Shown here piece after piece: positions 25,800-63,110 of a stretch of 64,000 nt of DNA. This DNA comes from a virus (lineage: Duplodnaviria > Caudoviricetes). A program made the position numbers and the translations under genes. The stretch is from IMG/VR virus record IMGVR_UViG_3300021400_000252, one strand, 5' to 3'. The notes under the pieces were generated by a model. The model had not been told where the DNA came from, did no database searches, and worked only from the letters and a program-made list of their open reading frames with translations. Within the stretch, counting starts at the first letter, position 1. The number at the start of each line of letters is the position of its first letter.

Positions 25800-27914
25800 A
25801 TGAATTTTGATCAAGAAAAATTTAATAAACTCTCAACTGAAGAACAAAAAGTCGTTTTACAAATTTTAAAAGAATATTCTAAAACTGGAAAATCTGAACT
25901 TTTAGATTCATTACAATCTATGGAATGGGACGAATTTCCAGTAGATATTCATACATTCTTACATGACAAACGATATTTAGGAAATGCATTATATGATGCT
26001 GAAGGTAAGTTTACAGTATTCCCATACTGAGAAAAATGTTTAGAAGATATATTTCCAACTAATACTTCAACAAAATATAATACTATAGTATTTACAGGAG
26101 CTATCGGTTTAGGTAAATCAACTATAGCAGTTATTTGTTTATTATATTTATTATATAGATTACTTTGTTTAAGAGATCCATATCAATATTATGGAATGCA
26201 AAGTATTGATAAATTAAGTATTTCAATGATGAATATTACATTAGAAAATGCTAGAGGTGTTGCATTAGATAAAATGAATTCAATGCTTTTAGCTAGTGAA
26301 TGGTTTATGAGTCATGGTGAAATGCATGGTACAACTAATATGAGATATGTTACTGATAAACATATTGAAATTATTTGTGCTTCAAGTAATAATCAGATCA
26401 TAGGTCGTGCTTTGTTTGCTAACTTTACAGATGAAGTTAACTTCTCTCTTGTTCAAGACCCAGTTAAGTCTAAGAAGAGAATGATGAAAATTATTACTCA
26501 AGTAGATGCTCGTATGAAATCACGTTTCATGCGTGGTACCTACTTACCTACATTAAATATTATCGCATCTTCAAAAGATAGTGAACAATCTTTCCTAGAA
26601 GAATTTATTCAAAATAAACAAAAGAATGAAAGTAAAAATACTTTAATTGTAGATGAACCTCAATGGGTAGTTGACCCAAGAAAAGATTCACCTCAAAAAT
26701 TCTGGGTAGCTATTGGAGATAAAGTTCTTGCTAACGAATTATTACCATTAGATGCAACTCCAGAATTAGTTGATGAATATAGAAATAAAAATTATACAAT
26801 GTGACAAGTTCCAATTGGATACTTAGATACATTCCAATTAAACCTTGATGAAGCAATTTGTTCTATAATTGGTATTGCAACAGCAGCATCTTTAAAATAT
26901 ATTTCAGGTGAAAGATTAGTTAAAACAAAAACTACTGATTATGAAAATCCATTCCTGAATGATATACTTGAAATTGGAGATGGAGAAGATGATTTACATC
27001 AATATTCAGAATACTTTGATTTAAGTAGAGTTAGTGATAAAGACAAAGAAAAACCATTATTTATTCACTTAGACTTATCTGAGTCTGGAGACATGACTGG
27101 TATTGCAGGCGTATGAATAACTGGTAGAGATGAATCATTTGATAAATCTAAAATGATTGAAAATGATTTTAGTCAATTATCAAAATTAATTTTACAAGAA
27201 TCTAGTGTAGAATCTCAGATGTTAATTTATAAATTAGCTTTCTCTGTTTCAATTAAAAATCCTAGAGGCGCACATATTAGTTCAATAAAGCATAGAATAT
27301 TTATAAATTGGTTAAAAGATAATGGATTTGATATTAAAATGATTACATCAGATACTCACCAATCTGCTACTCTTTTACAAGAATTAAAAGCTGATGGATT
27401 TGAAACAGAAGTATTATCAGTAGATAGAACAACATCACTAGAAAATAAAAAGAAAGTTTGTTTACCTTATCACTATTTTAAAACAGCAATTTATGAACGC
27501 CGTTTCATAATGTATGACAAAGCTAAACTATTAACTGAAGAGTTATTAGGATTGGAACGTGAAGCTGATGGACACATCAACCACCCTGAAAATGGTAAAT
27601 ATGGTTCTAAGGACCAAGCCGATGCAGTCTGTGGTGCAGTATGAACAGCTAGTAAAAATGGTGAAAAATATTCATTTGATTTTGGTGATTCAATTGAAAC
27701 AACTGTTCAAATTTCAAAACCAAGTAATACAAGTCAAAATGAGATTGAAAAACATGATTTTGGAAAAAATCTATTAAATGTAATGTCTAAAGAAAAATAT
27801 ATTGAAGTTGATGAATATGGTAATCCAAAATATTATGGAGACCTAGATGATACTGCAATAGATGATGATGCTATAAATTCAATAGCAATTTCTAATGGAA
27901 TAATTTGTATATAA
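25800..27914 (+). CDS. terL: Terminase large subunit (704 aa); four TGA-Trp codons at 26028, 26802, 27114 and 27642
   Basis: Walker A TGAIGLGKS lies in a gap of the track. Also Walker B FTDEVN, coupling motif IIASS, nuclease HLDLS..GD and SKDQADAV. Directly upstream of the portal. Confidence 0.93.
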
Positions 27915-27930
27915 TAATTAGGAGAATAAA

Positions 27931-29994
27931 ATGCCAGAAAATGATAACAAAACTAAAAAAATTAAAAAACAAGCATCTCAATTAGTAGGAACACTAATTC
28001 AAGCGACTCCTAATAATAACGATAATACTCGATTAGATGTAGATTTAAATAAAACGTTAGAAGACATTTTAATTTTAGGTGGATTAGAGGATAGAGTAAA
28101 TTTCTCAGAACTTGAAAAGTTTACACAAATTTCAAATTCAAGAGACTATATGTATAGTCAATTAGACACAATGTTCCAAGATGCATCAGTTTCGGCTATT
28201 GCAAGAATTTTAACTGAAAATGTTTGTGAAGTTGGAGATAATGGTCATATTGTTTGAGCTGAGTCTGATGATCCAAAAATTAGTAAATTCGTAAATTATG
28301 TATTAAATACTATGAATGTAGATAAAAATATTTTTGGATGGGCATTTAATCTTGTTAAATACGGTGATATCTATTTAAAAAATTTAAGAAATTCAGACTT
28401 TACAAATACAATTTTTAATTCACAAAGTATTCAAAATATGTATAGTGCTAAATCTCATTTAAACGAAACTATTCAATTAGATTTAAAGAATGCTAATGAT
28501 GAATTCTGTTGGAGATTAAAATTAGTTCCAGATCCTGCTACTATGTTTGAATTAAATCAAAATGATATTACTTTTGGATATGTTGAAACTCCAAATGATA
28601 TTACTCAATTAGCTAATCAAGATGCATATGCAGCTAATACTGGTTTAAATTCTAATGCATTAAATGGTGGTGGATCATTTAATTATAAAGTTAAATCAAA
28701 TGATATTATACTTCATGATGCTGAAGATTATATTCATATTTATTTATCAGATGGTCAATCAAGATTCCCAGAGACTATCGATTTAATAATGGAACCTGAC
28801 ATTAAAGATAAGAATGCTAAGAATCGTTCAAATTTAAAATCAACAACTTATGCTTTTGATGTTATTAGAGGAAAATCATTATTCTATGATGTTTATAAGA
28901 TTTGGAGAGAAAAAACTCTTATTGAATCCGCATTATTACTTGCAAGATTAACTCGTTCATCAGTATTTAGAATTGTTTCTATTGAAACAGCTAATATGGA
29001 TAGAACTAAAGCTAATCAATTACTACACCAAGTAAAAGATATGTTTGAACAAAAACGTGCTTTCTTAAGTGGTAAAAATGCTTCAGATTATAATAGCCCA
29101 GGTCCAATCGAAAACTGGATTTATAATAATACTAAGAATGGTAAAGGTGCTATCACAGTTGATACTGTAGGTGGAGATTATGATCCAAAGAATTTAACTG
29201 ACTTAGATAAATGGAACGATAGATTCTACGGTGCATTTGGTATTCCTAAACAATATTTCGGATTAACCGAAGATGGTGCTGGATTTAATGGTGGTACTGC
29301 ATTAACTATTACTTCAACAATTTTCCAAAAGAAAGTTTCTCAAGTTCAAAATGCTTTAATTCAAGGAATTAATACTGCAGTAGATTTATATTGTATTAAA
29401 AAAGGTTTAAAATCTTACGTACATAGATACACTATTAAGATGAGACCTCCAGTTTCTCAAGAAGAACTTAATTATAGAGAAAAATTAACAAATCGTTTAA
29501 ATGCTGTATCAACTGCTAATGCTTTATTCCAAGATGTTGAAACAAAGAGTAGTAGATTAATTATCTTAAAGAATTTATATAAGATGGTTGATTATGGTGA
29601 AGATGAAATTCTTCAAGTACTAGATGAAGAAATTAAATTAGCAAAAGCTGCTGAAGCTGAAGCTAAGAAACAAAAAGAAGAGGAAGCTAAACAAGCTGCT
29701 TTAGATGCTGCTAATGGTGAAGCTGCTAATGCCGAGCCAGCAAATGTTCCTGGTGGTACTGGTGAGACAGGTGGAGCTAATGAAGCATCAGCTCCTGAAG
29801 GTGAAACAGCTAGTGAAGGTGATGATTTAAATCTAGACTTAAATCTTACTGATTTACCAACAGCTGAATCTTTCAATAATACTAACCCAGATGCAGTAAC
29901 ATTAAATGAGGATGTTGACTTTCTAGATGAATCAGAAGATCTTCCAACTCCAGAAGAATTAGATGATAAAGTAGATTTTACTAAAAATAAATAA
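27931..29994 (+). CDS. Portal protein (T4 gp20-like); one TGA-Trp at 28255
   Basis: LVKYGDIYL, LLARLTRS..RI..I, TVGGD and FYGAFGIPKQY; located between terL and the protease. Confidence 0.9.
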
Positions 29995-30017
29995 TTAATA
30001 TTTGAAAGGAATTAAAT

Positions 30018-30488
30018 ATGTTATCTAAAAATGATTGCATGAATTTATTATTAGAGCTAGAAGATAAAGGTAAAGAAGTAAATTCATATATTAGAAGATT
30101 AATGTTATCTAAAGATGTACCATTAGAAGTATTAAAATTTATTGTAGAAAACCAAGGCATGAATGCTGCAAACTTCTATGAGGTTCTTAGACAAAAACAT
30201 AATAAATCAAAATCTCAATTATATGTAAATCTTGTAAATGAAGAATTAGATGATTCTGAAATATTAATAGTTTTATCTAGCTTATTGACTCAAATTTTCT
30301 TATATAAAAATAAGAATGAAAACGTTTCAGATATTTTCTTTAATGAAGTTCGTTTAAATGAAATATTACAAGCTTTGGAAAATTTTAGACAAACTGGCAA
30401 TTTAGATTTATGTAAAAAATTATTAAGATTAGTTCGATCAGACTTATTAGTTTTAGAATATATAAGTGGTAGAAGAGAATTATCTTAA
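30018..30488 (+). CDS. Hypothetical protein
   Basis: ORF with a GAAAGGA RBS. Confidence 0.7.
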   Translation: MLSKNDCMNLLLELEDKGKEVNSYIRRLMLSKDVPLEVLKFIVENQGMNAANFYEVLRQKHNKSKSQLYVNLVNEELDDSEILIVLSSLLTQIFLYKNKNENVSDIFFNEVRLNEILQALENFRQTGNLDLCKKLLRLVRSDLLVLEYISGRRELS

Positions 30489-30513
30489 AAATATTTAAAA
30501 TAGTTAAACATTT

Positions 30514-30540
30514 AAAAGGTGAATTAATTCACCTTTTTTT
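30514..30540 (+). terminator. Intrinsic terminator
   Basis: AAAAGGTGAAT/ATTCACCTTTT followed by a T-run. Confidence 0.7.
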
Positions 30541-30560
30541 ATTTTTATTTTATAAAATCT

Positions 30561-30569
30561 GCTAAATTA
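30561..30569 (+). promoter_or_regulatory. Putative late promoter GCTAAATTA
   Basis: CTGCTAAATTAAATGAT, intergenic. Confidence 0.7.
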
Positions 30570-30629
30570 AATGATTTAGATTTTTAAATCTTTTTCAACT
30601 TCTCAAATTAACAATTAAGGAGATATTAA

Positions 30630-31115
30630 ATGAAATTAGAGAATGGTTATAAAAAAGTATATACTGTTAATGAAGACGGTGTAAGAACTTTACATGCTAC
30701 TAAAGATGTTTTAAATCCAGCTGCTGATGAAACTATCATTGATAAAGCAAAAGCTCAAACATTAAAAACTGCTAACTTCTATCAAGATGGTGATGCAATT
30801 AGATATGTACTAGGTGCAAATAGAGCTATTGATCGTAAAGTTGATCCAGAGTTAACAGAAGTTAGAAAGTTATTCGTTGCAGTCCATGTTCATGAATATG
30901 AAAATCTTGAAGCTCGTTGGAATGAAGAAACACATGTTTGTACTTTTGATTTAAAGTGTAAGACTTGTGATGATACAAAGAGTATTCCTCAAGCAGGTGT
31001 TTTAGTTGAAGGTGAATATGTTGCAACATTAAAATTAGAGAATGGTCAAACATTTACTTCTAGAATTGCAGTTCCAGCACAAGAAACACCAGTTGCAGAA
31101 CCTGCAGGTAATTAA
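30630..31115 (+). CDS. Probable virion protein (possible head decoration)
   Basis: Own late promoter and strong RBS within the head module; HVH...CKTC motif. Confidence 0.55.
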   Translation: MKLENGYKKVYTVNEDGVRTLHATKDVLNPAADETIIDKAKAQTLKTANFYQDGDAIRYVLGANRAIDRKVDPELTEVRKLFVAVHVHEYENLEARWNEETHVCTFDLKCKTCDDTKSIPQAGVLVEGEYVATLKLENGQTFTSRIAVPAQETPVAEPAGN

Positions 31116-31143
31116 TTTTTAAAATAGTAACTAAGAATTATTT

Positions 31144-31152
31144 GCTAAATTA
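31144..31152 (+). promoter_or_regulatory. Putative late promoter GCTAAATTA
   Basis: TTTGCTAAATTATTTGTA, upstream of the protease and capsid genes. Confidence 0.75.
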
Positions 31153-31195
31153 TTTGTAATCAAATTGATTAATGATATGTAATGGAGGTAAGTTC

Positions 31196-33175
31196 ATGAA
31201 TAACACTACGAATTTATCAACAGATAAAATCCGTGAAGCATTACATTTTCAAGAATTAACTCCTGAAGAAAAACAATCAAGAGGAATTCTTGGTAGACTT
31301 TATGGTCCTTGTGCTTCATTCATCGCACCAACAAGAAATGATCGTTTCTATGGTGATGAGTTATGGACTAATGTATTTGAAAAAAATGAAATAGTAAAAG
31401 AAATGTTTGATAATGGTGGTATTCCAATGGAACTAGACCACCCATTAGGAGATAGAGAAGAAACTACTTCAATTAACATTGCAGCTATTCTTCCAGAAAG
31501 ACCTAAAAAAGATAAAGATGGACATTTAATTACTTATGTTGATATCCTAGATACTCCAAGTGGTAAAATTGTTTATACTTTAGCTAAGTATGGTTTTAAA
31601 TGAGGTATTAGCTCAAGAGGTTCTGGTGAATTAATTTCTGATTATGACGGACATGAGTCTGTTGATCCAACTTCTTATGATTTTCAAACTTTTGATTTAG
31701 TATTACTTCCAGCAGTTAAAGATGCACGTTTAACATTCGTTGAATCTTATGATGCAAAACAAAAAACCGCTATGAAGAAAATGAAGAGAGAATTAAAAGA
31801 AGCTTTAAGTACAGCTTCAGATGGAGATCGAAAAATTATGGAAAATGCTTTAGATAATTTAAAGATAAACTTAGATGATGAAAATCTTAGTCCAGAAAAT
31901 GTTGTAACTGAAGCTATCTCAGATAAAATGTTTGATTTAAATAATGCTCCAAAAACAACACCAGATGGAATTGAAATTGAATATGTAAATATTGATGATT
32001 TCGATAGCTGGTTAAATGAAGGCTTAGATGATTTAGACGAAGCTAAAAAGGACGAAGATCAACCAGAAGATAAAGATAAAGATAAAGAAGAAGAAAAAGA
32101 TTCAGATAAAGATAAAAAAGAAGATAAAAAAGATAAAAAAGAGGACAAGTCAGAAAAGAAGAAAGATGACAAGTCTGATGACGAATCTGAAGAATTTGAA
32201 CCTAAGAATGAATTTACTGTAAAAGAAATTACAGATGCATTCAAAGGTCTTGATAAAGATGCAGTAGTAAAAGTACTACCAGTTGAAATCGATAATAAAG
32301 AAATGAATATTAATCTTTATTTTGATAAAACTGATGAAGACAACCTTGTTATAGGTGGTACCATCGCTCCTGAAGAGAACGATGAAAACATAGATAATCC
32401 TGAAACTGAAGAAACTATTGATGTATTCGGAAACGAAGACGTTGCAGCTAGTGATACTGGAGCAGAGGAATTAGTAGACGATTCATTTATAGAGGACTTC
32501 AAGAAAACTGTTCGTGAAAATAAAGCTTTAGAACAAAAAGTTAAGACTTTAGAAAACGAAAAGACAGTTAGTGATGCTAAGGTTAATGAATTAGATAAGG
32601 AACTTAACCAATATAAAGAAGCTTTCAATAGAACAAGTCAGGTTGCGTCTCAATATAAGAAATCAAAATTAGAAATTCAAAACTTAAACAATCAGTTAGC
32701 TGAAAAAGATAACCAAATTAAAGCTTTAAGTGAAAAATTATCTAATAACAAATTAACTGAAAGTTTAGATTCTACTAAATTAGAAGTTACTAAGTTAAAA
32801 CAACAATTAGTTGAACAAGCTACAAACTATAAGCAAAAATATGCTGAAAGAACTGATGTAGCTAAGAAGTACAAATCAATGTATTTAGGTGTAATGCAAA
32901 AATATGTTGAATCAAAAGCTAATATGTTAAACGTTAGAGCTTCAGAGATCACAAGTAGACTAGACAAAAACTATACTACAGATGATGTAGATCAAGTATG
33001 TGATCAAATCTTAAATGAAGGTATGACAATGTCAAATATGAGTCATTTACCTTTAACAAATGCAAATACTAAAGTTAAATTCAGTGAAGGCCTACAAAGA
33101 CAACAAGCTCCTAAAGAGGATGCTGGATATGAGATCGCTGATTGGGCTCTAGAACTTGCAAATATGGAATATTAA
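31196..33175 (+). CDS. Prohead protease (T4 gp21-like) fused to a scaffold-like acidic and coiled-coil region; one TGA-Trp at 31601
   Basis: RNDRFY, ELDHP, ILDTPSG, then past the TGA: GISSRGSG and FDLVLLPA. In frame with track ORF 31772. Confidence 0.92.
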
Positions 33176-33211
33176 AATTTAAATTAGAAAATATTATAGG
33201 AGAAAAACATT

Positions 33212-34642
33212 ATGGCAAATTTAATGGAAAAATATGGCCGTCAAATTAAAGTTGCTGAGTCTTTCGTTGCTGAAAACTTCGGTAAGAAGATTTCTGATAG
33301 AACAAGACTTAACACTGCTGTGTTAATTGAAAACACAAATAAATTCATCTCAATGAGAGAATCTTTCGCTACAACTAGAACAGATCTTGGTGATTACAAG
33401 AAATTCTGTTTAAACTTAACTAATATCTCAGTTCCAAGCTTAATTGCTAATGACTTAGTTATTACTCATGCTTTAACTTCATTCTCTGGTTCTGTTGCTT
33501 ACTTAGAGTATCAATCAAGAACTAATAAAGGTGGTGTAAATGCTGGTGATACATTCAATAGTGTATTCGGTCTTGGTGAAATGAATGCTGCTCGTCAAAA
33601 CTTCACTTCTGCATACATCGTAGATGTATTAGCTGCTGGTGAAACTAAGGTTACTGTATCAACTGCTCAAAACCAAATCGTTAAGGGTTCATTTGCTGTT
33701 CCTCAAGATAGAACTGCTGCTGATGGTTCTGATATGTACACTGGTGGTGTAGTATACACTAAGAGAAATAATGTTGCATATGCTGATATTAAGTATGTTA
33801 TTGTTGATCCAGTAACTAAGAAGACTCATTTCGAATATGATACTGTTGATGCTGATGCAACAACTGCTCCAGTAGCTCCAGACAATGCAATTAAAGCATT
33901 ATATGCTTCAAATGAATTCCAAATGACTAATGTTCCTGCTAAAGACATTCCAACAATTGGACCTGTTATGAAGAATATTCCTCTAGTAGCTGAACCTAGA
34001 CGTATCGCTGTTAAGTATGATCAAATCACTGCTTTCCAAGCTAAGACTGATTATGGTTTCTCATTAGATAAGCAAATTGCTGAACAAGCAGTTGGTGAAT
34101 TAAACTATGAAATCGATACTGAAATCGTAGATATGTTATATCAAGCTGCTAAGGCTGAAACTACTGCTGATGAATTAAAGTTAACTACATTCTCTAAGAC
34201 TTTACCTCTTGGTGTTGATATGTTCAGACACTATAGTTCATTCTTAAATACTTTATCTAAGGCTAGAACTATTATCTACAAGAGAACTAAGAAGTTCTTA
34301 CCTAACTACATGGTATGTGCTCCAGACGTTCTTAACGTATTAGAGTTCGTTCAAGGTTATAAGGATACTACTCCTAACAAGATCTATGGTCCTTATAAAG
34401 CTGGTCAATTAAATGGTCTTGCAGTTTATGTATCTCCATTATTAAATGATGGTGAATACTTCATTGGTTTAAATGGTTCTGATATGGTTTCATCTGCAGG
34501 TGTATATGCTCCTTACATGGCTATCGTTCCTACTAACCTATTAGGTACACCAGATGGTGGTTTAGCTCAAGGCTTCTCTACTTACTATGCTAAGGCACTT
34601 GTTAACCCAAGTCTATTAGTATTTGGTAAGATTGTTGACTAA
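33212..34642 (+). CDS. Major capsid protein (T4 gp23-like)
   Basis: AEPRRIAVKY...ELNYEIDTEIV and SAGVYAPY; high-expression codon bias; MRES candidate maturation site. Confidence 0.93.
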   Translation: MANLMEKYGRQIKVAESFVAENFGKKISDRTRLNTAVLIENTNKFISMRESFATTRTDLGDYKKFCLNLTNISVPSLIANDLVITHALTSFSGSVAYLEYQSRTNKGGVNAGDTFNSVFGLGEMNAARQNFTSAYIVDVLAAGETKVTVSTAQNQIVKGSFAVPQDRTAADGSDMYTGGVVYTKRNNVAYADIKYVIVDPVTKKTHFEYDTVDADATTAPVAPDNAIKALYASNEFQMTNVPAKDIPTIGPVMKNIPLVAEPRRIAVKYDQITAFQAKTDYGFSLDKQIAEQAVGELNYEIDTEIVDMLYQAAKAETTADELKLTTFSKTLPLGVDMFRHYSSFLNTLSKARTIIYKRTKKFLPNYMVCAPDVLNVLEFVQGYKDTTPNKIYGPYKAGQLNGLAVYVSPLLNDGEYFIGLNGSDMVSSAGVYAPYMAIVPTNLLGTPDGGLAQGFSTYYAKALVNPSLLVFGKIVD

Positions 34643-34664
34643 TCTAAACTAAAATAAAAAATAT

Positions 34665-34691
34665 AAAGAGCCTCGAAAGAGGTTCTTTTTT
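34665..34691 (+). terminator. Intrinsic terminator after the capsid gene
   Basis: GAGCCTC-GAAA-GAGGTTC followed by a T-run. Confidence 0.85.
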
Positions 34692-34729
34692 ATTGTATAA
34701 TTATTATATAAAACAGTTTTGGAGGTTTT

Positions 34730-35518
34730 ATGAGTATTTTTACAGATAAAGAGTTAAAATCAATCTATGAGCGATTATTACCACAAATAAAGGATGAAAT
34801 AACTGCCGAAGATTATTTTAGATTGGTAGAAAATTTAGATCAGTTTTCTTTAGCTGATGCATTAACGTTCGAAAAAATAAATCGAACTGCACCAATATAT
34901 TCAGATATGGTAGGTAAATATAATGGACCTCAAAGAATTGGATTATTTGCTAATACGACTTTAATAGAACAGAGTTGCATTAATAAACCAATAAATCCTT
35001 TTAATTTATTTAAATATCCAATACGATTTAAATATGGAGATAATACACATAATATAATTAATGGTGGAGCTGGAAATTATGCTTCTGATTTATATTATGA
35101 AACATCTGGAACTTCTGGAATAAAAATAAAAGTAGAAGTAAAGAGTTTTGTAGGCGAACTAGAATCAGCCATGAAATTATATGGTTTCAAAGATACAAAA
35201 ACTGGTTTTCCATATAATGCTACATTTTTAATATTATTTAATAGAGACACTTTAAAATATTATTTAATAGGTAATGATAAGCAATATTATAATTATGCAA
35301 CAAAGACAACTAATTATATAAATACTGATAAAAAGATTAAAGTAAAATCTGATGAAGTAGAAAAAGTATTTATCTATGAAGAACTAGATTGGGTTTGTGA
35401 TCCTAGACTGCATGATGTTCATACAATTAAATGGAATTCTGAGTTAGTTAAACTTGCAGAAGAAATATGCGACCATGTAGGAATAAAACCAATGATAAAT
35501 GAAAGAAAGAATTATTAA
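34730..35518 (+). CDS. Putative PD-(D/E)XK endonuclease
   Basis: ASDLYY...KVEVKSF motif. It has its own class II-like promoter (34693) and flanking terminators. Confidence 0.45.
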   Translation: MSIFTDKELKSIYERLLPQIKDEITAEDYFRLVENLDQFSLADALTFEKINRTAPIYSDMVGKYNGPQRIGLFANTTLIEQSCINKPINPFNLFKYPIRFKYGDNTHNIINGGAGNYASDLYYETSGTSGIKIKVEVKSFVGELESAMKLYGFKDTKTGFPYNATFLILFNRDTLKYYLIGNDKQYYNYATKTTNYINTDKKIKVKSDEVEKVFIYEELDWVCDPRLHDVHTIKWNSELVKLAEEICDHVGIKPMINERKNY

Positions 35519-35550
35519 AAGCTAAAATTTATTTTTAGCTTTTTTATTTT
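35517..35550 (+). terminator. Intrinsic terminator
   Basis: AAAAGCTAAAA/TTTTAGCTTTT stem followed by a T-run. Confidence 0.6.
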
Positions 35551-35555
35551 TATCT

Positions 35556-35629
35556 GCTAAATTATACGTATAATGTTAAACATAATAACATTAAAAAAAT
35601 TTAAAAAAGTTTAATACTATGCTAAATTA
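35556..35629 (+). promoter_or_regulatory. Two tandem putative late promoters GCTAAATTA (35556 and 35621)
   Basis: Both are exact matches upstream of the neck gene. Confidence 0.7.
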
Positions 35630-35649
35630 ATTAGTTTTGGAGGTTTAAT

Positions 35650-36372
35650 ATGAATGTAACCTTAGCTGATGTTATTAGAGAGATTAAACGTAAAGTTTGG
35701 GCAGGTGACAACCTAGAGCATGATCTAGAAGATGTTGATCTTAATGAGATTGTAAATGAATCGATTCGAGAAATAAGACGATATTTCGATGAAACTGCTA
35801 AAGTGACGATTCCATTCCAACGATGTATTAATCTAAATGAACAAAAATTTAAACCAAGTTCTATAATAAAAATTTATAAAGTAAATGGAAATAGTGTTAA
35901 TACAGATGATATAAATGTTAATACCGACCCACTATATGCTTATCAATTTTTAATATGGAGTAATGGTGGTACTATGTACAATGTACAAGATTACACTTAT
36001 AATTATGGTGCTTGGAGTACTATGAACCAAATTCGAAATACTTTAACAACTGAATTAGATTTCGAAGAGGATAAACAAAATAATTTAGTTTATATATTTA
36101 CGAGTTTGAATCCAAAAGCAATCACACTTGAATATATTCCAAGAATTGAAAAAGTTGAAGATATTCAAACAGATAGATGAATAGATATATTAATTCAATT
36201 AGCTGTAGCTCATACAAAAGTTGAAGTTGGTAGAATTAGAACAAGATATACTACTTCAAATGAACTATGGGGTGATGATGCTGAAAAAATGTTAACTGAA
36301 GGTCAAGAAGAACTAAAAGCTTTAAGAGAAAAACTTGAAGAAGAAGACTCAGTTATACCACCATTAAATTAG
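35650..36372 (+). CDS. Neck / head-tail adaptor (T4 gp13-like); one TGA-Trp at 36178
   Basis: DRW...AHTKVEVGRIRTRY...EGQEELKALREKL matches the gp13 C-terminus; TAG stop at 36370. Confidence 0.85.
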
Positions 36373-36392
36373 ATAAAAATAGGAGAACATAA

Positions 36393-40514: not shown

Positions 40515-40519
40515 TTAGT

Positions 40520-40564
40520 AATGGATTGGCTGGCTAATCTTGGTCATCCAATCCATTATTTTTA
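40520..40564 (+). terminator. Stem-loop, probable terminator
   Basis: AATGGATTGG...CCAATCCATT followed by a T-run. Confidence 0.65.
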
Positions 40565-40579
40565 AGAAAGGTGTTTAAT

Positions 40580-45813: not shown

Positions 45814-45815
45814 TT

Positions 45816-46896: not shown

Positions 46897-46905
46897 GCTA
46901 AATTA
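46897..46905 (+). promoter_or_regulatory. Putative late promoter GCTAAATTA
   Basis: TTTGCTAAATTAACTGAT. Confidence 0.7.
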
Positions 46906-46934
46906 ACTGATAGTTTAATTGATTGGAGTTCAAG

Positions 46935-49283: not shown

Positions 49284-49297
49284 AATAGGAGATAAAA

Positions 49298-50761: not shown

Positions 50762-50777
50762 AGATAGGAGATAAAAT

Positions 50778-51425: not shown

Positions 51426-51438
51426 TTTGGAGATTTAT

Positions 51439-51765
51439 ATGGATAGATTAAAAAATAAATCTTATAAAAACTATAATTATACAAATCGATACACTACAGT
51501 ACCATATTATTATGATACTAAAACTGGAAAATATGTTTATGGTATAGGAACTTCTATGGATAAATCAATTCCATACTATACTCATAAATTATCTAGTAAT
51601 GATACATTAGATTACTTAGCTTTAAAATATTATGCAAATCCAACTTTATGGTGAATTATTGCTTATTTTAATGATATTATAGATCCATTTATTAAATTAA
51701 CTGACTGTTATACTCAAATCAAAATTCCAAATATGGCAAGTATTAAATTTGGAGCAGATAGATAA
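51439..51765 (+). CDS. LysM-type baseplate wedge protein (T4 gp53 / P2 gpX-like); one TGA-Trp at 51652
   Basis: DTLDYLALKYYANPTLWWIIAYFNDIIDPF...IKIP, with the second W from TGA. Confidence 0.88.
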
Positions 51766-53087: not shown

Positions 53088-53182
53088 CGTTTAGGAACGT
53101 TTTATTTAATTAATGATTAATTTAATTACTTAATAAATAAACGCTATCCTGGTGACGATTTCTATTGAAAGGAACGATAATT

Positions 53183-54067
53183 ATGTTAACTCAAGCTGAA
53201 ATTAAACAAGTAATAACTCGTAATAATCTAAGTGGATCCTCTGAAGAAACAGGTGTATACTTAGTCCATATTCCATTATTCGATACAGTAACAAAAATTA
53301 ATACACTTGTTTATGCTCATGCATTATACAATGATGCAGGATATGGTTCATATGAAGTCGGTGATTTAGTGTGGGTTGGTTTTGAAAAGAATGAAGCCGG
53401 TAAGCCAGTAATTCTTGGAAGGATGTATCAAGGAAGAGAGTTAGCCACACTTAAAAATAAATATAAATCTCAAGTTACTGGTAAGGATTTAGATATTAAA
53501 GAAAAAGCATCATTACCTTATGATACTTTATTTAAAGATAAAACATTTGCAAGTCTTAATACTGATGTAATTAATTTAAATGAAAAAGTTGAAAAACTGC
53601 TTCCATTAGTTGAACTTCAAAATGCTGATACAATGGATACTGAACAAAGATACATTCGAACTAAGAATATTAAGTATAGTGCTGAAAAAACGTTTTATAA
53701 TAATGTTAAATCAACTCAAGCAGAAGTTTATACATATAACTTACTTATTCCATCTCAACAAGTATTTACTAGAATGAGCGTAGCTGCTTTATCGAGTTAT
53801 TCGCCTAATTATAAATTACCAAATGGTGATTTAATCATTCATAATATTAATGCTTACTGTTTACTTACAGAAAGTAATCAATCAAGACATTTAAATATTA
53901 GTCCATATATTTATATTCAAACTGTTGGATATGGTAAATCTAAAACTAATGATATATTTTTTGATACTATAAGATTTTGTGAAGACTTTGATATTAGTTC
54001 TCAATTTAGTATTACTTTAGATTACTTATCTTTAAATATTGAATATTCAAACATTACAAAGAAATAA
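53183..54067 (+). CDS. Baseplate spike protein with a gp5/gpV-like OB-fold N-terminus
   Basis: EVGDLVWVGFEKNEAGKPVILG; located between the hub and gp25 genes. Confidence 0.75.
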   Translation: MLTQAEIKQVITRNNLSGSSEETGVYLVHIPLFDTVTKINTLVYAHALYNDAGYGSYEVGDLVWVGFEKNEAGKPVILGRMYQGRELATLKNKYKSQVTGKDLDIKEKASLPYDTLFKDKTFASLNTDVINLNEKVEKLLPLVELQNADTMDTEQRYIRTKNIKYSAEKTFYNNVKSTQAEVYTYNLLIPSQQVFTRMSVAALSSYSPNYKLPNGDLIIHNINAYCLLTESNQSRHLNISPYIYIQTVGYGKSKTNDIFFDTIRFCEDFDISSQFSITLDYLSLNIEYSNITKK

Positions 54068-54073
54068 TATAAA

Positions 54074-54111
54074 AAAAATAAAGTTATTAAATATTTAATA
54101 ACTTTATTTTT
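54074..54111. terminator. Long A/T-rich palindrome, probable terminator
   Basis: AAAAATAAAGTTATTAAATATTTAATAACTTTATTTTT is self-complementary. Confidence 0.55.
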
Positions 54112-54121
54112 ACTTTTAATT

Positions 54122-54130
54122 GCTAAATTA
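54122..54130 (+). promoter_or_regulatory. Putative late promoter GCTAAATTA
   Basis: TTGCTAAATTATATAG. Confidence 0.7.
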
Positions 54131-54157
54131 TATAGTTAGTTGTAAAGGAGATTAAAA

Positions 54158-54541
54158 ATGCGTTCAATTAAATTTCCAAATATGTTTAATACGAATAGTA
54201 CTAATGTATGAAAGTCTTCTGAGTATAAAGAAGCAACCGCACAAAACACAGAATTAGTTCTATTAAGTGAACGTCGTTCTTTAATCGGTGACCCATTCTG
54301 GGGTGGATTAATCGATTCATTAACTTTTGAACAAAACTCTCAAATGACATCTGAAATTTTGGCTGATGTAATTTATGAACAAGTTTCAATTTTTATACCT
54401 CAGTTAAAAATTAGACGTGAAGATATAGTTATAAGACGTGAATCAGGAAAAATATATGCAGATATTCATGGAATAAATCAAATAGATTATCAAAATGATC
54501 TTTACACTTTAATACTTTCAAATAATTCATTAAACGAGTAA
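54158..54541 (+). CDS. Baseplate wedge / sheath initiator (T4 gp25-like); one TGA-Trp at 54209
   Basis: MRSIKFP...QNTELVLLSERRSLIGDPFWG..I..LTFEQN...FIPQL; AAGGAG RBS. Confidence 0.85.
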
Positions 54542-54556
54542 ACAGGAGAATGAAAT

Positions 54557-57500
54557 ATGATAAATAATAAAGATATCGCTGCAATTGAATTATCACCAAC
54601 TGCTAAAGATTATTATCAAATATGGAACGAATTACTAGAGACTGCAAAAAAGCTTTCTGCTAGATGGGATCCAACAACAACAAATGAATCAGATCCTGGT
54701 ATCGTTTTATTAAAAGTTATTACAGCTATTGTAGATAGACTAAATTTCCAAAATGATATTACAGCTCTTGAAGTTTTTATGCCATCTGCATCTGAATTTG
54801 AAAGTATGCAAAAATTATGTAATATGATGGGATATAATATTAAATATTATCAATCAGCAACAACTGATGTTACGTTATATTATAGTGGACAAAAAGAATG
54901 GACAGAGTCTTCTTATTTAATTCCAATGTTTACTGCTTTTACAAATGCAGATAAAAGTATAAATTATTTTACAACTGAACCAAAATATTTAACAAAGAAT
55001 TCATACGGAGTTCTATTACCTTGTATTGAAGGACAAATAGAACAATGTGAATCAGATAATGATAATATTATTTCTATTTATCAATTAGATGATAATCATA
55101 GATATTATTTCTCTGAAACTCAAGTTGCTCAAAATGGTATCTTTGTTTTCAATATTAATGATGGAAATAAGAGTGAAAGATGGACTGAAGTAGATAATTT
55201 AAATTCTCAACAAGCAAAGAGTAAAGTATATAAATTTGGATTTGATTCTAGATTAGCAAAACCATTCATCGAATTCCCTGAAGATATTAGTTCAATAATT
55301 GAAGACGGTCTAGAAATTTATTATACTAGAACATCTGGTATTAGTGGAAATATTAGTGCTCGTGAATTAAGTGCTTTCGTAACAGTACCTTCAACATTAA
55401 GCGATGGACTTGATGGTGATTCAGCAAACTATACTATTGTTAATGCTTCATCATCAACTAATGGAGCTAATATTGAATCAATTCCTGAAGCTTATACTAA
55501 TTATAAAAAGACAATAGGTACTTTTGATACATTAATTAATTGTAGAGATTATATGAATAAAATCTATCAATTAAAAGATGATGCAAATATTGATTTAGTT
55601 TCAAATTGTTTAGTTTCAGATATTAATAATGATATTAACCACTCTATTAAATTATGTACATATAATGATTATGGAATTTATTATAAGAACGTTCAAACTT
55701 CTGATGATTCTCCTATTGATAACTTTACATTAACATTATATCCATTTAAGAGAGTAAATAATTTAAATACTAAATCTGAGTACTTAAATTCATTTAAATT
55801 GGATAGAAGTGTTTTAACAGATATTGAAACTAAGCTTGAAAATCTTAAGACATTAGTTCATAAATTTAGATTACCTTCTGAAGAATACGGTGACAATAAA
55901 GAACCAGAAATTGTTGCAATTAAGAATTACTTACAATTAAAGGCTATCATTACTACTACTGAAAGAGTAAATAAAGCCGAGCAAAGCGTAATTCTAGCAA
56001 ACATTAAGACTGCAATTTATGAAAACTTTAATTTACGTAAATTAGATTTTAGTGAACAAATTCCATATGAAAGCATACTAGAAGTAATCACTAATGCAGA
56101 TAAAAGAATTAAGAATGTTAACTTAGACGAACCAACATTATTAACAAAATTTTTATTAGCAAATAATAATGAATATAGTGTTGCTAGTACTTATTCTATA
56201 GATCAATCAAATAAAAAATTTAATAACTTAAGTGGTGAAGAACAATTAAGTAGAAAGATATATAATAAACTTGCACTTAGAAATATCTTAGCTGGAAAGC
56301 TTGAGTTATTTAATTATAATACTGAATTTAAATCATCATTCACTGAAGCTAAATATCCAGACACTACTACTATTAGTGTTGTAACACCAAAGGCAGGAGA
56401 TTTAGAAAGATATGGTGTTGTAAAAATTAATACAGCAACTCAATATGATTTAAATAGTACTGGAGATAAAAAATTAACTAATGGTGAAATAATTCAATTT
56501 AGATCTAAAAATCTAAGAACAACAATTACATATCCAGCATATGTAAATTATTATTTATCATTAAAAAATACTTCAGGATTGGATAATTCAGCAAAACCTG
56601 CATCATTTATCACTTTATATGATTGTTTAATGTATTTAGGTAAATCATCAAGTACTCCATTATCATTTAGTACAAGTCAGAGTTCATTTACTTTTACACC
56701 TACTTCTATCTCAAATGAAGTTGAATTTAATGCTTACGATGGTAGAGAAATCTTATTTGTACAATCTACAACAGATAGTACTAAATATAACACAGGAAAT
56801 GGTTGAGTAAATGACCAACGTCAAAGATTCGTAAGTGACACTACATATTATACTTTAAATGTAAAAGCTGCAGATAATTTCTACGCATTAGTTTCTTATA
56901 TTAAAAAGAAAATTCTTGTTAACTCAATTTATTATGACGGAATTTATAAATGTTTAGGTGCAAGCAAGAATTATATTCCAGGATACTTAATTGATCAAAA
57001 TCAATATAAATATACTAGATTACTTTTTGCTCCAGTTAATGGTAGCTGGACTAGTTACTTTGTTCAAGATCCAACTAATGGATATGCTAAAGCAGAAAAT
57101 AATTATAGCTTAGGTAAGGATGCTGTTCTAGAAGGTCTTGCAAAGAATGGTGAATATCAATTAAAAGATGGAGAATTCTTATTAATTAATTACACTAATT
57201 CAGAAACAGAAACTGACGGTACATCACAAAAAGAAACCATAATAAATAAATATTATGGAAAAGGAACTATAATTAGACCTAATTTTAAAATGGTTGATTC
57301 AATTCAAAAGTTCAATGCTGGTAGTTCTTATACTAAAACAGATATAGATTTTAAAACTGCATTCGACGAAGCTAACGTTCAATTAACAAATACTGTTTAT
57401 TCATTATTTACATTAGGTTCTGATGAACAAATTGAGATAAGAGAATTTGCTGATATTTATTTAGATTCAAACACAGTGTACTTATATTGGAATTTAAATA

Positions 57501-59395
57501 ATAGTTCAAATGTATTAAGACTTAAGTTTGAATCAAAGAAAACTGTTGGTGGTTATAATGTATATACTCACACTTATACTCTAAGTGAGAATGAATATAT
57601 TTATTATTCAGATCAAAATCAATTAGACATGGCATATTATGGAAATGGTACAAAGATTTCTATGAAACAATATGTCTCAGTTTCAACTTCTGTTGATGAA
57701 TCAGAATTACGAGCTGATAGAACATTCTATATTAAAGATAAGACTGTAAATAATGAAACAATTTTAACTGAAGGATTAAGAAGTATTCCTTGGCAAAAAT
57801 TTAACTTTGATTCACACTCTATTGATTCAAATAAAACATTCATGGTTTTAACTGAATATAATTATATAAATTTAATCGAAGGTGATTATATTGTTAACTT
57901 AGAATTAGATACTGAAGATTCAGATGAGTCTGATGGCTCAGCATTAGCGAGTGAACAAAAAATTGGTAATGACTGAGTTAAAATTAAGCAAAACAGTCTA
58001 GTTAGTTATTATTCAGACGGTGTTTACAAAGAATTACCAAAATTAGATTTTGAAGATAAAGAAAATTACTGGGAAGTCTCTTGTAAATTAGTTTTAAACT
58101 GTGGACCGGATTTAGATCAAACATTAGTAAATACTAATGATACAATTACTTTACATTTATTAAGTAAGACTATAATTAATGATATTATTAATAGTTATAA
58201 TGAGACTGGTGCGGATATTAAAGGAAGTATTGATAGCAAGATTGCAGAATATACTCAATCACCAGACCAATCAAATTATAAACCAATAGAATTAAAGAAA
58301 ACTAATAATCAATATCCATTAAACTTAAAATCTAATTATGAATTAAGAAATGCATATGGTGATATTTATACTTTAATTCAGACTACAGATTCTGATACTG
58401 GTGAAGATACATTTATTTATGACTTTAAAGTTAAATCAACTAGTATAAATAATCTTACAACTGCTTTAAATACATCATTAAATCAATCATTACATAACGT
58501 AAGTGATAATTTAACAAGATTTTCATTCAATGAAATCTTCAACTCAAGATTAGTTACTCAAAATCTTGATTATAAACCAAATGATGATAATGTTAATCTA
58601 AGTTTATTACTTCCAATTGAAAATGCTGGTGCAGGTACAACTCAAACAAATTGGCAATATGGAATAGTGATGATTTATTATATTAAAAATCAAACTACTA
58701 AGACAAATGTTCAAGATGTTGCAATAACACTTTCAACCGCTACATCTGCACCAACACCAAAGATATTTGGAAACTTTGTTAAAGATCCAGAAGATAATCT
58801 ATCAAATGTAGATCCATCTAAATTTGGTTGGTGGAACCAAGACAGTGATAGTTTAAGTGCTGATACATATTATAGTTATAATAGTGGTACTTATTATAAA
58901 TTAAAACCAGGAATAAACATTTTATATATTCCATCATCAGTTACATTAAAGATTTATCCAGATGTTTATTCTGACGATGGTGGTACTACATATAAATTAA
59001 AATGTGAAGATTCGATCATCATATCTGATTTAAGTTTAGTTAATGCAACTAGAGATAATATCTTCGGAATTAATTTAGATTTAGTTCATTATTATATTAC
59101 AACTAAAGCTTCACCAAGTGATAATGAAGTTAGTGATATTGGAAAGCAATTAATTCTTGATATTAGTAAGATAGATAAAGATAATGAATTCTTCTACAAT
59201 TCTCCTATTAACAATAATAATGCAATTGATATTAACACAAAAGCATTAGATGTTAATGGAGATAATGAGAGTTTACAAAGTCCAAATATTTGGTACAGCA
59301 GAAACAATGTAAATAATCCATATGTAATTTCTGAAATCGATATAAAGTCAGTTGATAGTAATATTCAAATAGCTAGATCTTCAATGAAGAATTAA
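54557..59395 (+). CDS. Large baseplate wedge protein (gp6/gpJ-like N-terminus, 1612 aa); TGA-Trp at 56804 and 57974
   Basis: KDY..I, ESDPGIVLL, MMGYNIKYYQSATT, TNGANIES and RDY. Three track ORFs share one frame. Confidence 0.85.
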
Positions 59396-59405
59396 GGAGA
59401 CATTT

Positions 59406-60104
59406 ATGATAAAGATTCAAGATGAAACTCCAAGCATTTATTATAACAAATCTCGAGACTTCCAATTTATTGGTAGATTATTCGAGATTATGTTAAATTA
59501 TTCAAAAACAAATACAGATCTATTATATAGTTTACCTTCTAAAAATACTGACTTTGCAGATTTATTAGCTCTAACACTTGGAATCAACTTAAAACATGAT
59601 TATAATACAGATCAGTTAATGGCTATTTGTAGTATATTTCCAACAATTCTAAAAAATAAAGGAACATTTAATGCATTAAAGTTAGTCGGTGATACTATTC
59701 TTCATGCAGAAGGTATCACTGATAACTTCGATTATCAATTTGATTCAGATAATTACACATTAACAATCTTCATTCCTATAGAATTAACAGATTTAAGTTT
59801 ATTTAATGATTTATTAGAATATATTTTACCGGCTGGTGTTTGTTATAATATTGTAAAAACAACAAGAGTAAAAGAAGTGATAACTCAAAAATTTGATTTA
59901 AACGAAAAAATGACTATCACAAAATTAGACCTTGAAAGAACAGCTAAATTAAGAAAAGAGTATGATAGTAAACATACTCAAATAGGTGCTCAACCTGGAT
60001 ATTTAATTAATACAGGAATTATTAGACCTACAAGTACCTTAGATAAACCTAAGGAAACAACCACAGATAATATTGTTTATCAAGATGACAAGTTATCTGA
60101 ATAA
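59406..60104 (+). CDS. Baseplate wedge protein (gp7/gpI-like)
   Basis: LLALTLG, ILKNKGT..AL and LEYILPAG. Confidence 0.75.
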   Translation: MIKIQDETPSIYYNKSRDFQFIGRLFEIMLNYSKTNTDLLYSLPSKNTDFADLLALTLGINLKHDYNTDQLMAICSIFPTILKNKGTFNALKLVGDTILHAEGITDNFDYQFDSDNYTLTIFIPIELTDLSLFNDLLEYILPAGVCYNIVKTTRVKEVITQKFDLNEKMTITKLDLERTAKLRKEYDSKHTQIGAQPGYLINTGIIRPTSTLDKPKETTTDNIVYQDDKLSE

Positions 60105-60126
60105 TATATAGAAAGTTGAGTGTAAT

Positions 60127-60714
60127 ATGACTGATACTTATTTAGACTCATTACAATACACTGGAACAATTATTGTTAAAGAATTTAAAGGTAAAGAGTT
60201 AATAAAAATAAATAAATTTCATAATCAAGGTTGTGATCCGTTATTTAGATTCTTTGCAAAGTGTCTTGGAGGAGATTTTGCTTCTGCAAAATTATTAAAA
60301 CCAACTAAGATAAAATTATTTGATGTTATTAATAAAAATTCCGATTCGCCTGCTGGATTTGATTTTAGTACTACATCAATGAGAAATGTATCTACTGATT
60401 TTATTTATTTAGATACAAATGTATTTGTACAAGAAGATAAAGCTACCTTTAGATTTTCAATTCCATATTCATATCTAATTGGTAGCTTCCTATCTGTTAT
60501 TGGATTATATGCTGATTCAGAAACAAATGATAAAGCACCTTGTGCTTATTATCTACTAACAAAAGAAGTTGTACAGAATTATAATAAGATATTAGAATGG
60601 GATCCAGTAGATATTCGAGATAAAAACCATAACTTTAGTTTATTAGTTGAATGAACAATGCAAGTAAGTAATCCAGAAAAAATTAAAGAGAATAATGTTG
60701 TTAGTAGTAATTAA
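60127..60714 (+). CDS. Baseplate-fibre adaptor-like protein; one TGA-Trp at 60652
   Basis: HNQG, VIGLY and terminal FSLLVEWTMQV; TAA at 60712 overlaps the next RBS. Confidence 0.65.
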
Positions 60715-60725
60715 GGAGAAAAAAC

Positions 60726-63110
60726 ATGGCTATAAATTATTTTAAAAGTGATAATGTAGAAGTTTATCCTTCAGCATATAGAGGAACATATAAAAAAGAT
60801 AATGAATTATATACTTATAATGTTGAAAGTTCAATTTATACAGAAGTAAATCATACATTATTCTCACATATTAATAAAGATACTTACATTATTACTGATC
60901 CAGATAAAGTCTCAAAAAATAATCCACTTGAAGTATTGATTCATGGATATTATTTTAAAATACTTAATCCAAGTGAGCTTTTTGATACAACAGGTAAATT
61001 CAATATTAGTTATTTAGGTATTAGAACTAAGTTAGTTCCTATTGGTACAGATCAAAATAGTACAATTTTATGTGCATTTACTAATGATACTAATGTTGAT
61101 AGTACTGGAACATTAGATGTAGCAAATGGTGATTTTGTCGGACTAGCTTATTCAAAAGATGTTAAACCTGTAGAAGGCCAATCATCTGAATATAAATACT
61201 ATTTCTTAGACTTTACTACTAATGACAAAAATGAATTATACGGTAAAATCAAAAATGTTGATTTAGAAGACGATATTATAACTACAGAAAAAATAGTTGA
61301 TCAAAGTGTTACTACAGACAAATTACATGATGGTGATATCACAACTGAAAAAGTTAAAGATGAAGCTATTACTCATGAAAAAATAGCTGATAATGCTATT
61401 GAAAATAATAATATTAAAAATAATACTATTGAAAATGTAAAGCTTCTTAATAAAACTATTGAAGGTAATAAGATTAAAGACAGTACTATCGGTACAAGTC
61501 ATATTATTGATAAAGCAGTTACTTCTAAGAAAATTGCTGAAAGTAATGTATTAACTGAGCATATCAAAGACGATAATATTACTTTTGATAAACTTGGACC
61601 TGGAGCTATTAAATATGATCCAGATAAACGTATTATAGCTGATGATGCAATTAGAGCAAGTAATATTGCTGCTAATAGTATTATTGAAGAGAAAATTCAA
61701 AACTCAGCAGTAACAACTAAGAAAGTAAATGATAAAGCAATTACAACAGAAAAAATCGCAGATAAAGCGGTTACAAACGATAAGATTGCTCAAAGTGCAG
61801 TAAAGACTGATAATTTAGATTCTAATGCGATTATTTATGGTGCTAAATATATTGTAAATGCTAGTGGAAATGGAAATAGATATACTCGTAGCGATAAATT
61901 ATTATTTATTGACAATGGTGAAATTAAAGAAAGTAACGTTAACATTGGTTCTGTAAATAACCCAGTATATTTAGATAATGGTATATTTAAGTCAGTTAAT
62001 AGAACTGGTTCTTATTCTAAACCAATTGTTGGAATAAATGATTTAAACTATGCTTTTGTTAATGATGGTATTCAATTTAATAGTTATGCAAAAATTTATC
62101 TTTCAGGAAATAAATTATATGTAAATAGATCATTAGATTTATCAAATAATAATATTGAAAATATTAAAAAGATTAATGTAGGTGAACTTAATGCAAATAC
62201 GTTTACAGCTCAAACATTTAAAGTAAGTGGTTCTATTATTTGTTATGGTAGTCCAAGTATTAAACTTGCAGGTGGACAAAACATTGTTTTCCAAGATGTA
62301 CCAAGTGAGCATACTGGAACTAAATTATTTATTAAGACAAATAATAATGGAATAAAACTATCTGCAGAACATTATGCTTATAATCCTAGTTCATGTTCTA
62401 GTACAAAAGATACAGAAAATTATTTATGGTTAACAAAAGATTATACTCAGTTAAATAAAAAATTATGTGGTACTGGAAGTCTTATTCTAACAAACTCTAG
62501 TTCTGAATCTTCTCGAATAACACTAAATAGTTCAGATATTAGTATTAAAACTGATACTATAGTTTTGAATAATGATACTAAGATTTCAAATGGTAGAGTT
62601 CGATTCATTAAAACTCCTTACTTTAACAAAGGTATATATTCTGATACTTTTGACCTAACATATTCTTGATGGTCAAATCTTTGAAAATATAGTGATTATT
62701 ATTATAATAGTTCTCTATTACAGGATATAGTTGCAAACACAATACATGATCGTGGATATACATCCAGTACATTAATATTAATAGAAGGAGTTGTTTACTT
62801 TAACTTAAGTTATCATGATAGTGATCAACTTCGAAGAAGAATCGGTATACCATTTGCAATAAGTGCTTACTATTATAGTAATGGAAATTATGTTGATAAA
62901 CTTCCTGATTCTTATGATCAGAGTTATGTTGCTGTTGCAAATCTAGATTATTTATTAGGATGGGATAAAGATAATGGAGGTATTTATCTAGAAATCGAAA
63001 ATAGAGAATTTAGACTTAGAGGATTTAAAGGACAAGGAAGCAATAACGAAGTATTTCAATATATCGATAAGCCTGGAATCATTATTTCTAGAATTAGTAC
63101 ATTACATTAA
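60726..63110 (+). CDS. Tail fibre / receptor-binding protein (794 aa); TGA-Trp at 62667 and 62682
   Basis: 10-residue repeats of the ITTEKIADKA type. The frame stays open to TAA at 63108, just before a terminator. Confidence 0.8.

Follow-up and report, generated by a model that had tools for sequence, protein, structure and literature searches.

Why should a phage genome that is very rich in A+T and reads TGA as tryptophan (Trp) use this codon so sparingly, often only once per gene? The question is raised by a 64,000-nt stretch of the virus record IMGVR_UViG_3300021400_000252 (the window; G+C 23–33%), in which an earlier note on positions 25800–63110 had read single TGA codons in virion genes as a candidate translational gate on assembly. 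Our own explanation, which we hold to be probable as a whole, is that the phage brings its own UGA-decoding tRNA into a host that terminates at UGA, that selection keeps TGA out of particular genes, and that A+T mutation pressure scatters it at random over the others.

Long open reading frames (ORFs) fill the window when it is translated with code 4, and coding density is 0.93 under this code compared to 0.82 under code 11 and 0.83 under code 15. We took 55 ORFs as genes under code 4, 54 of which have their stop codon inside the window; these stop codons comprise 45 TAA, 9 TAG and no TGA. Within the genes, 26 in-frame Trp codons are TGA and 138 are TGG, and 19 of the 55 genes contain any in-frame TGA. 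The gene for the large terminase, terL (25788..27914, + strand), the portal gene (27931..29994, + strand) and others are intact only when TGA is read as sense, and good ribosome-binding sites precede the TGA codons that occur close to gene starts, which places these codons within the genes. terL contains four TGA (codons 81, 339, 443 and 619) and five TGG, the portal gene one TGA (codon 109) and five TGG. The column of terL codon 81 is Trp in 120 of 120 homologues; at this codon the window has TGA, as do 12 of the 14 relatives with sense TGA, and six relatives that lack sense TGA have TGG. At the TGA columns of terL and portal, relatives that do not use sense TGA carry TGG in their DNA, and this comparison at the DNA level is free of circularity from translated databases. 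TGA is Trp in the genes of the window. The finding matters mainly for annotation: read without code 4, half of the virion genes of this phage and its many rumen relatives look broken.

TGA is also avoided. The A-ending codon accounts for 16% of Trp codons and for 77–99% in each of the 13 other NNR families (binomial P ~1e-61 against the lowest of them), and therefore TGA is actively avoided here, unlike in A+T-rich code-4 bacteria, which favour TGA for Trp. Our recount reproduced the tallies of the earlier note: TGG clearly outnumbers TGA, thyA (0 of 7 Trp codons), topA (0/6), the four genes of the MoxR operon (0/16), the tail tube gene (44914..45540, + strand; six TGG) and the gene of a 1373-aa protein (0/7) are free of TGA, terL has four in nine, and each of the virion genes that it had listed for a single TGA has exactly one.

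We read the lineage stepwise by exact-protein look-ups over ~102 kb, which cover the window, ~10 kb upstream and 28 kb downstream, the flanks being taken from strains 98–99.4% identical. The window's own contig (L081) is 130,742 bp long and 100% identical over 10,421 nt; other L numbers, such as L078, L079, L004, L009 and L112, denote loci of related strains or relatives, and G001, G002 and G003 are genomes of relatives. Strains 98% identical sit on scaffolds of 243.9 and 244.9 kb, and the source genome is likely that of a ~244-kb rumen myovirus with 27% G+C, belonging to the class of TGA-to-Trp recoded gut phages.

ARAGORN finds no tRNA inside the window, in agreement with the earlier note, which had seen none there and had proposed a search for tRNA-Trp(TCA). 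The contig of the window does contain such a gene, ~2.3 kb downstream of the window. L081 stops 2,366 nt past the window within a tRNA gene with anticodon UCA that begins ~2,291 nt past the window end, and it retains the first 76 nt of this gene at the contig end (L081:12712-12787). Complete copies of the tRNA(UCA) gene are present at L078:12712-12807 and L079:12712-12807, each with 57.6 bits against the Rfam tRNA model; ARAGORN calls the gene (anticodon tca) in L078 only, not in L079. The two copies differ by compensatory changes in the acceptor and D stems. The tRNA has A1-U72, G73 and a D arm that resembles the one in the Trp(CCA) tRNA of a relative. Its extra arm is 26 nt long. In L078 the arm has a stem of 5 bp and a loop AGUCCAAAC; the core of this loop, AGUCCAAA, is kept in L079, and the loop looks like the anticodon loop of Trp CCA tRNA. 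Bacterial tRNA-Trp has a short variable loop as a rule, and the tRNA(UCA) of G001 is of normal size (75 nt). ARAGORN labels the tRNA "SeC" (selenocysteine), a label that we rejected on the basis of the 7-bp acceptor stem, A1-U72, G73, the Trp-like D arm and the position of TGA at invariant Trp columns. The TGA codons of the window are almost certainly read as Trp through this tRNA of the phage's own. On a speculative reading, the extra arm, with its loop mimicking a CCA anticodon loop, might be a way to recruit the host tryptophanyl-tRNA synthetase (TrpRS) without a TrpRS of the phage.

The tRNA(UCA) gene is located ~45 nt behind a copy of the 9-mer TGCTAAATT. This motif occurs 11 times in the window, always on the + strand and always between genes (starts 4856, 13468, 19995, 24086, 30560, 31143, 35555, 35620, 43183, 46896 and 54121; span 4856..54129), where 2.5 copies are expected by chance and none of 100 shuffles reaches 11. 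It precedes the protease, neck, sheath, tape-measure-like and baseplate operons, the MoxR operon and others, and is likely a phage promoter element, as judged from its placement and enrichment. A second motif, TTGTATTAT, lies before both the tRNA(UCA) gene and a gene of 275 aa; on its own it is not enriched in the window (6 seen, 3.7 expected).

The relatives differ in their codes. terL has more than 1,400 homologues, many of them on contigs of 130–235 kb from rumen and gut samples, and the terL clade formed by the IMG/VR loci holds TGA-recoded, TAG-recoded and standard-code members. L121 is syntenic with the window and has the standard code with TGA as stop; L012 and L013 belong to the same terL clade (60% identity) and recode TAG, their coding density rising from 0.69 under code 11 to 0.91 under code 15. 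Two near-complete genomes, G001 (223 kb, with terminal repeats) and G002 (232 kb), are collinear with the window. G001 carries a tRNA(UCA) gene and trpS beside its tRNA array, G002 carries trpS followed directly by prfA, the gene for release factor 1 (RF1), and a trpS homologue is also present in a 224-kb relative. These code-change genes (trpS, prfA, tRNA) are themselves free of TGA in G001 and G002. Of RF1, release factor 2 (RF2) and TrpRS, for which the earlier note had suggested a search, RF1 and TrpRS are thus encoded in relatives, and none of the three was found in the ~102 kb of the lineage itself.

We then asked which code the host uses. A host with code 4 (Mycoplasma-type, without RF2), whose code the phage would simply share, agrees with the very high A+T content of the genome and with a terL fragment, 74% identical, in a metagenome-assembled genome (MAG) labelled uncultured Tenericutes; in addition, the nearest named cellular homologues of the trpS product of a relative are TrpRS from Bacilli and Anaeroplasma. 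In Anaeroplasma and Acholeplasma, UGA is a stop codon. The pattern of a native code-4 genome, in which TGA is preferred in all gene classes, was not found: TGA makes up 16% of Trp codons here compared to the 77–99% A-ending codons of the other families, and none of 44 Trp codons in the downstream non-virion genes. Also against a shared code are the phage's own tRNA(UCA), the trpS and RF1 genes of relatives, and the syntenic relatives that use the standard code, with TGA stops, or recode TAG. In-frame TGA occurs in 19 of 55 genes here, whereas it occurs in ~90% of genes in phages whose hosts use code 25, with TGA as Gly (10.1101/2021.08.26.457843). Finally, three MAGs, which carry the labels Candidatus Limenecus, Lachnospiraceae and uncultured Tenericutes, contain contigs related to the window, and RF2 is present in each of them; the RF2 fragment of the Tenericutes MAG scores 348 bits over 247 of 353 positions, on a model to which complete RF1 sequences match with 277–291 bits. 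We consider a code-4 host very improbable.

The host probably uses the standard code. We infer decoding supplied by the phage because (i) the tRNA(UCA) gene stands behind TGCTAAATT, (ii) relatives encode trpS and prfA, (iii) other relatives have the standard code or recode TAG, (iv) TGA is under-used and (v) RF2 is present in the MAGs. The earlier proposal of a standard-code host with UGA decoding provided by the phage is supported in this outline, the host code being the part that is reached by inference. Among cultured phages the nearest capsid matches are 29% identical (Bacillus and Listeria phages) and give no hint of the host.

Does the distribution of TGA over the virion genes carry information? 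The T4-like morphogenesis module (25788..63110, + strand) was named by PHROGs and Pfam and comprises terL, portal, prohead protease, major capsid, neck, sheath, tube, baseplate including a gp25-like wedge, and fibres; its gene order is syntenic with G001 and G002. Its 27 genes contain 19 in-frame TGA and 79 TGG. The TGA codons start at 26028, 26802, 27114, 27642, 28255, 31601, 36178, 41305, 42478, 44526, 47268, 51652, 52779, 54209, 56804, 57974, 60652, 62667 and 62682. Exactly one is found in the genes for portal, protease, the 240-aa neck-like protein, the sheath and the gp25-like protein and in those of 317, 250, 786, 440, 127 and 195 aa; the genes of 1612 and 794 aa have two each. If each virion gene had been given a single UGA codon so as to control the timing of assembly and the stoichiometry of subunits, as the earlier note proposed, these 11 single-TGA genes out of 27, the promoter-like motif that the tRNA(UCA) gene has in common with the virion operons, and the contrast between abundant proteins without TGA (major capsid, tube) and the low-copy terminase with four would all find an explanation.

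We compared the counts with a null in which the TGA labels were permuted over the Trp codons of the 27 genes. Genes with exactly one TGA number 11 compared to 8.0 ± 2.2 permuted (P = 0.13), genes with at least one TGA number 14 compared to 12.5 (P = 0.24), and the variance of TGA per gene is as expected (P = 0.47); the under-dispersion that the gate predicts is absent. A null based on gene length gives the same answer, and for the window as a whole the 15 single-TGA genes compare with 13.7 expected (P = 0.39). Thirteen of the 27 genes, the capsid gene among them, have no TGA at all. Within genes, TGA shows no bias towards gene starts and is distributed no differently from TGG (Kolmogorov–Smirnov P = 0.48). 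The codons also turn over between closely related strains: the portal gene has three TGA and three TGG in L004 (98.3% identical) compared to one and five in the window, the TGA at 25298 is TGG in L009, and six recoded relatives lack TGA in the protease gene altogether. The pattern does not hold steady from strain to strain. TGA at terL codon 81 is kept in 12 of 14 relatives with sense TGA. One UGA per virion gene is further undercut by TGA in non-virion genes, namely those for the Mre11/SbcD-like nuclease and a possibly sigma-like protein of 275 aa and a 551-aa ORF among replication genes. There is good reason to regard the one-per-gene appearance as the Poisson outcome of few TGA codons spread over many genes, and a gate built from single codons has in our view very little chance of being correct. 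The wider idea is not new: it is the model published by Borges et al. (10.1101/2021.08.26.457843), to which the earlier note added the one-per-gene claim.

We also compared the use of TGA between gene classes. Over the ~102 kb, 19 of 98 Trp codons in virion genes (19%) and 10 of 138 in other genes (7%) are TGA (P = 0.008), a bias that is significant only with the flanks borrowed from the 98–99.4%-identical strains; inside the window, the corresponding numbers are 19 of 98 at 25788–63110 and 7 of 64 before 25788 (19% and 11%; Fisher P = 0.19). The 28 kb downstream, a tRNA and RNA-processing region, contain no TGA among 44 Trp codons. In the 10 kb upstream (U32 operon, dUTPase, DnaB, primase, PolA) only TGG is used, except in the 551-aa ORF (L112:13172-14827), which has three TGA, lies between the U32 operon and the dUTPase gene and is fragmented by code-11 callers. 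Over the ~102 kb, TGA is thus commoner in virion genes without being confined to them.

The gene for the major capsid protein (33212..34642, + strand) has no Trp codon in the window, and its orthologues in ten TGA-recoded relatives have no TGA among 34 Trp codons. Capsid proteins of relatives contain two to four Trp, each encoded by TGG. G001 and G002 use TGA for ~49% of Trp codons, with strong modularity: TGA accounts for 0–20% in some 10-kb bins and for 60–93% in others, thyA (0/15), Mre11 (0/11) and capsid (0/4) are free of it, and Rad50 has at most one.

These numbers bear on neutral codon capture, according to which TGG simply drifted to TGA under A+T pressure once tRNA(UCA) had been gained, the low share of TGA reflecting a recent change and having no regulatory use. 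The random scatter over genes, the interchange of TGA and TGG between strains, the lack of positional bias within genes and the far lower share of TGA here (16%) than in G001 and G002 (49%) are what drift would produce. It would not account for the same genes staying free of TGA in TGA-heavy lineages, as do major capsid (0/34), thyA and Mre11, for its absence from the downstream region (0/44), for the strong modularity of G001 and G002, or for the 275-aa gene, which is rich in TGA in all four recoded genomes examined (3/6, 3/5, 5/5 and 3/3). Drift alone is thus unlikely, though a more serious contender than either a code-4 host or a one-per-gene gate.

The 275-aa gene (7031..7858, + strand) belongs to no known family. 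Three of its six Trp codons are TGA (codons 17, 84 and 220), and TTGTATTAT lies upstream at 6999. TGA makes up five of five Trp codons in its orthologue in G001, three of three in G002, three of five in L119 and none of four in the standard-code L121. Its neighbours are largely TGA-free in G001 and G002, while in L119 Mre11 (3/3) and topA (3/6) are recoded as well. Neither Pfam and PHROGs nor Foldseek and a sequence-profile search, both run against the PDB, give a match for the protein. We obtained an AlphaFold (AF2) model with a pLDDT of 82 and two helical domains, and VIA-align of this model against the PDB places more than 20 sigma region-2 chains among the top 50; the comparison with T4 gp55 (7d7d_F) gives Z 7.3 and rmsd 6.0 over 122 aligned residues, where Z <8 is also seen for unrelated helical bundles. 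The N-terminal domain may, on the model, resemble sigma-factor region 2. One could then imagine that the 275-aa protein reads TGCTAAATT and that UGA decoding licenses late transcription, which in turn raises tRNA(UCA), giving a feed-forward timer upstream of the virion genes. We regard such a timer as rather unlikely; if it existed, the scattered TGA codons of the virion genes would be tolerated passengers.

The preferred explanation can be put in steps. The host would terminate at UGA through RF2, and the phage would make its own Trp-type tRNA(UCA) from a gene behind TGCTAAATT, the motif common to virion operons; larger relatives would add their own TrpRS and RF1. UGA could not be read until the phage has begun to express its genes, and even then its decoding would probably be less efficient than that of UGG. 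TGA would be kept by selection from genes whose products are required ahead of the tRNA or irrespective of it (replisome, nucleotide metabolism, the tRNA and RNA-processing module) as well as from the gene for the major capsid protein, which is the virion protein of highest abundance. In the remaining genes, TGG would turn into TGA at random under A+T mutation pressure. We also compared the base following the codon, as a possible sign of competition with RF2. In the window it does not differ between TGA and TGG (n = 26, P = 0.62); in G001 and G002 there is more A and less T and C after sense TGA than after TGG (P ~1e-7 each), which may reflect competition with RF2 or a mere dinucleotide bias, TGG itself having an odd excess of C.

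Several observations weigh against this explanation. Charging of tRNA(UCA) with Trp is deduced from its features, and its 26-nt extra arm is unusual. No trpS or release-factor genes were found in the ~102 kb read of the ~244-kb lineage genome. The evidence from RF2 comes from metagenomic binning of short phage contigs, and such binning does not tie a phage to a host. The class bias depends on the borrowed flanks, as given above, and early-type genes with TGA (Mre11/SbcD-like here, topA and Mre11 in L119) blur the split between early and late genes. TGCTAAATT, a candidate late promoter, also precedes the Rad50-like gene.

The region upstream of the virion module encodes a YfbR-like HD hydrolase, thyA, SbcD/Mre11-like and SbcC/Rad50-like proteins, peptide deformylase, topA and a MoxR-type AAA operon. 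The Mre11/SbcD-like gene (3063..4115, − strand) has one TGA at codon 39 (3999-4001), which is TGA also in L112 and L119, and a gene of 122 aa (9674..10042, + strand) has one TGA (codon 35) and no TGG. Three genes of 452, 211 and 514 aa directly upstream of terL (22000..25747, + strand) contain one TGA in the 452-aa gene (22294) and one in the 514-aa gene (25298). Their orthologues in G001 and G002 are TGA-rich (14/15, 10/14, 6/7 and 9/11), which suggests that these genes are probably part of the recoded class. In relatives, terL is in places enlarged by intein/homing-endonuclease domains (PF14890, PF14528 and PF13392; in P0014, P0016, P0018, P0020, P0076, P0078 and P0080, and at L044 and L035).

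Beyond tRNA(UCA), the lineage carries a ROOL RNA, ~38 more tRNA genes including Trp(CCA), a tmRNA gene and Tpt1/KptA-like, Thg1-like and nucleotidyltransferase-like genes. The ROOL RNA (RF03087, 248–254 bits) is located at L078:13735-14352 and L079:13810-14425, between tRNA(UCA) and the main tRNA array. Phage-encoded tmRNA genes are present at L123:15513-15886 in this lineage, at L062:1091-1496 in G002 and at L064:237-616 in G003, where they adjoin tRNA arrays and genes for tRNA repair or maturation (Tpt1/KptA-like, Thg1-like, CTP_transf_like and YqeY). The tRNA-Trp(CCA) of L078 (17384-17457) has a G27.A43 mismatch in the upper part of its anticodon stem, and that of G001 (4292-4365) an A.C mismatch one pair below the top; four contiguous pairs remain. 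L079 has a full anticodon stem, so the mismatch is not conserved. A 2026 paper (PMC13092985) reports reading of UGA by Trp(CCA) tRNAs whose anticodon stem has 4 bp.

Recoding as such is an already known habit of gut phages, to which the window adds a lightly recoded member. Together with its heavily recoded, standard-code and TAG-recoded relatives it forms a series useful for studying how stop codons are captured; we draw attention to the capsid gene that is consistently free of TGA, the possibly sigma-like gene that is consistently loaded with it, and the long-extra-arm tRNA(UCA) in a lineage with no TrpRS found in ~102 kb. The closest comparison is with the phages of Borges et al., whose work reportedly appeared later in Nature Microbiology (2022).

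These phages, of low G+C and from gut and cattle samples, read TGA as Trp or TAG as Gln, and one clade may contain several codes; TGA no longer serves as a stop, suppressor tRNAs occur in some genomes, and Jade phages carry modules of RF1, TrpRS and tRNA (10.1101/2021.08.26.457843). Recoded codons concentrate in structural and lysis genes, and recoding was proposed to time late expression (10.1101/2021.08.26.457843). By published description, the Jade, Sapphire and Agate clades share with the phage of the window low G+C, a large genome, an animal gut source, TGA as Trp and no TGA stop, as well as a phage suppressor tRNA, the mixture of codes 4, 11 and 15 and TGA that is commoner in structural than in replication genes; the "code change module" of trpS, RF1 and tRNA, described for Jade, is found in our relatives. 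The window differs in its sparse TGA (16% of Trp codons, 19 of 55 genes), in the lack of trpS and RF1 in the ~102 kb read and in the 26-nt extra arm of its tRNA(UCA).

TAG-to-Gln crAss-like and Lak phages likewise combine recoding in late genes, phage suppressor tRNAs and standard-code hosts, but with another codon and amino acid, in another virus lineage and in Bacteroidota hosts. Mycoplasmatales and Entomoplasmatales with code 4, and their viruses, also decode UGA as Trp through tRNA-Trp(UCA) in A+T-rich genomes; they lack RF2 and use TGA as the majority codon in all gene classes, whereas here TGA is a minority codon avoided in core genes. In E. coli, TrpRS:tRNA(UCA) pairs taken from phages have been shown to place Trp at UGA in competition with RF2 (PMC12636597). 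The tRNAs of that study come with a phage TrpRS, of which none has been found so far in this lineage, and by their features they otherwise resemble the tRNA described here: Trp-type, with a UCA anticodon, derived from recoded phages and, in the case of AP1, also carrying G73.

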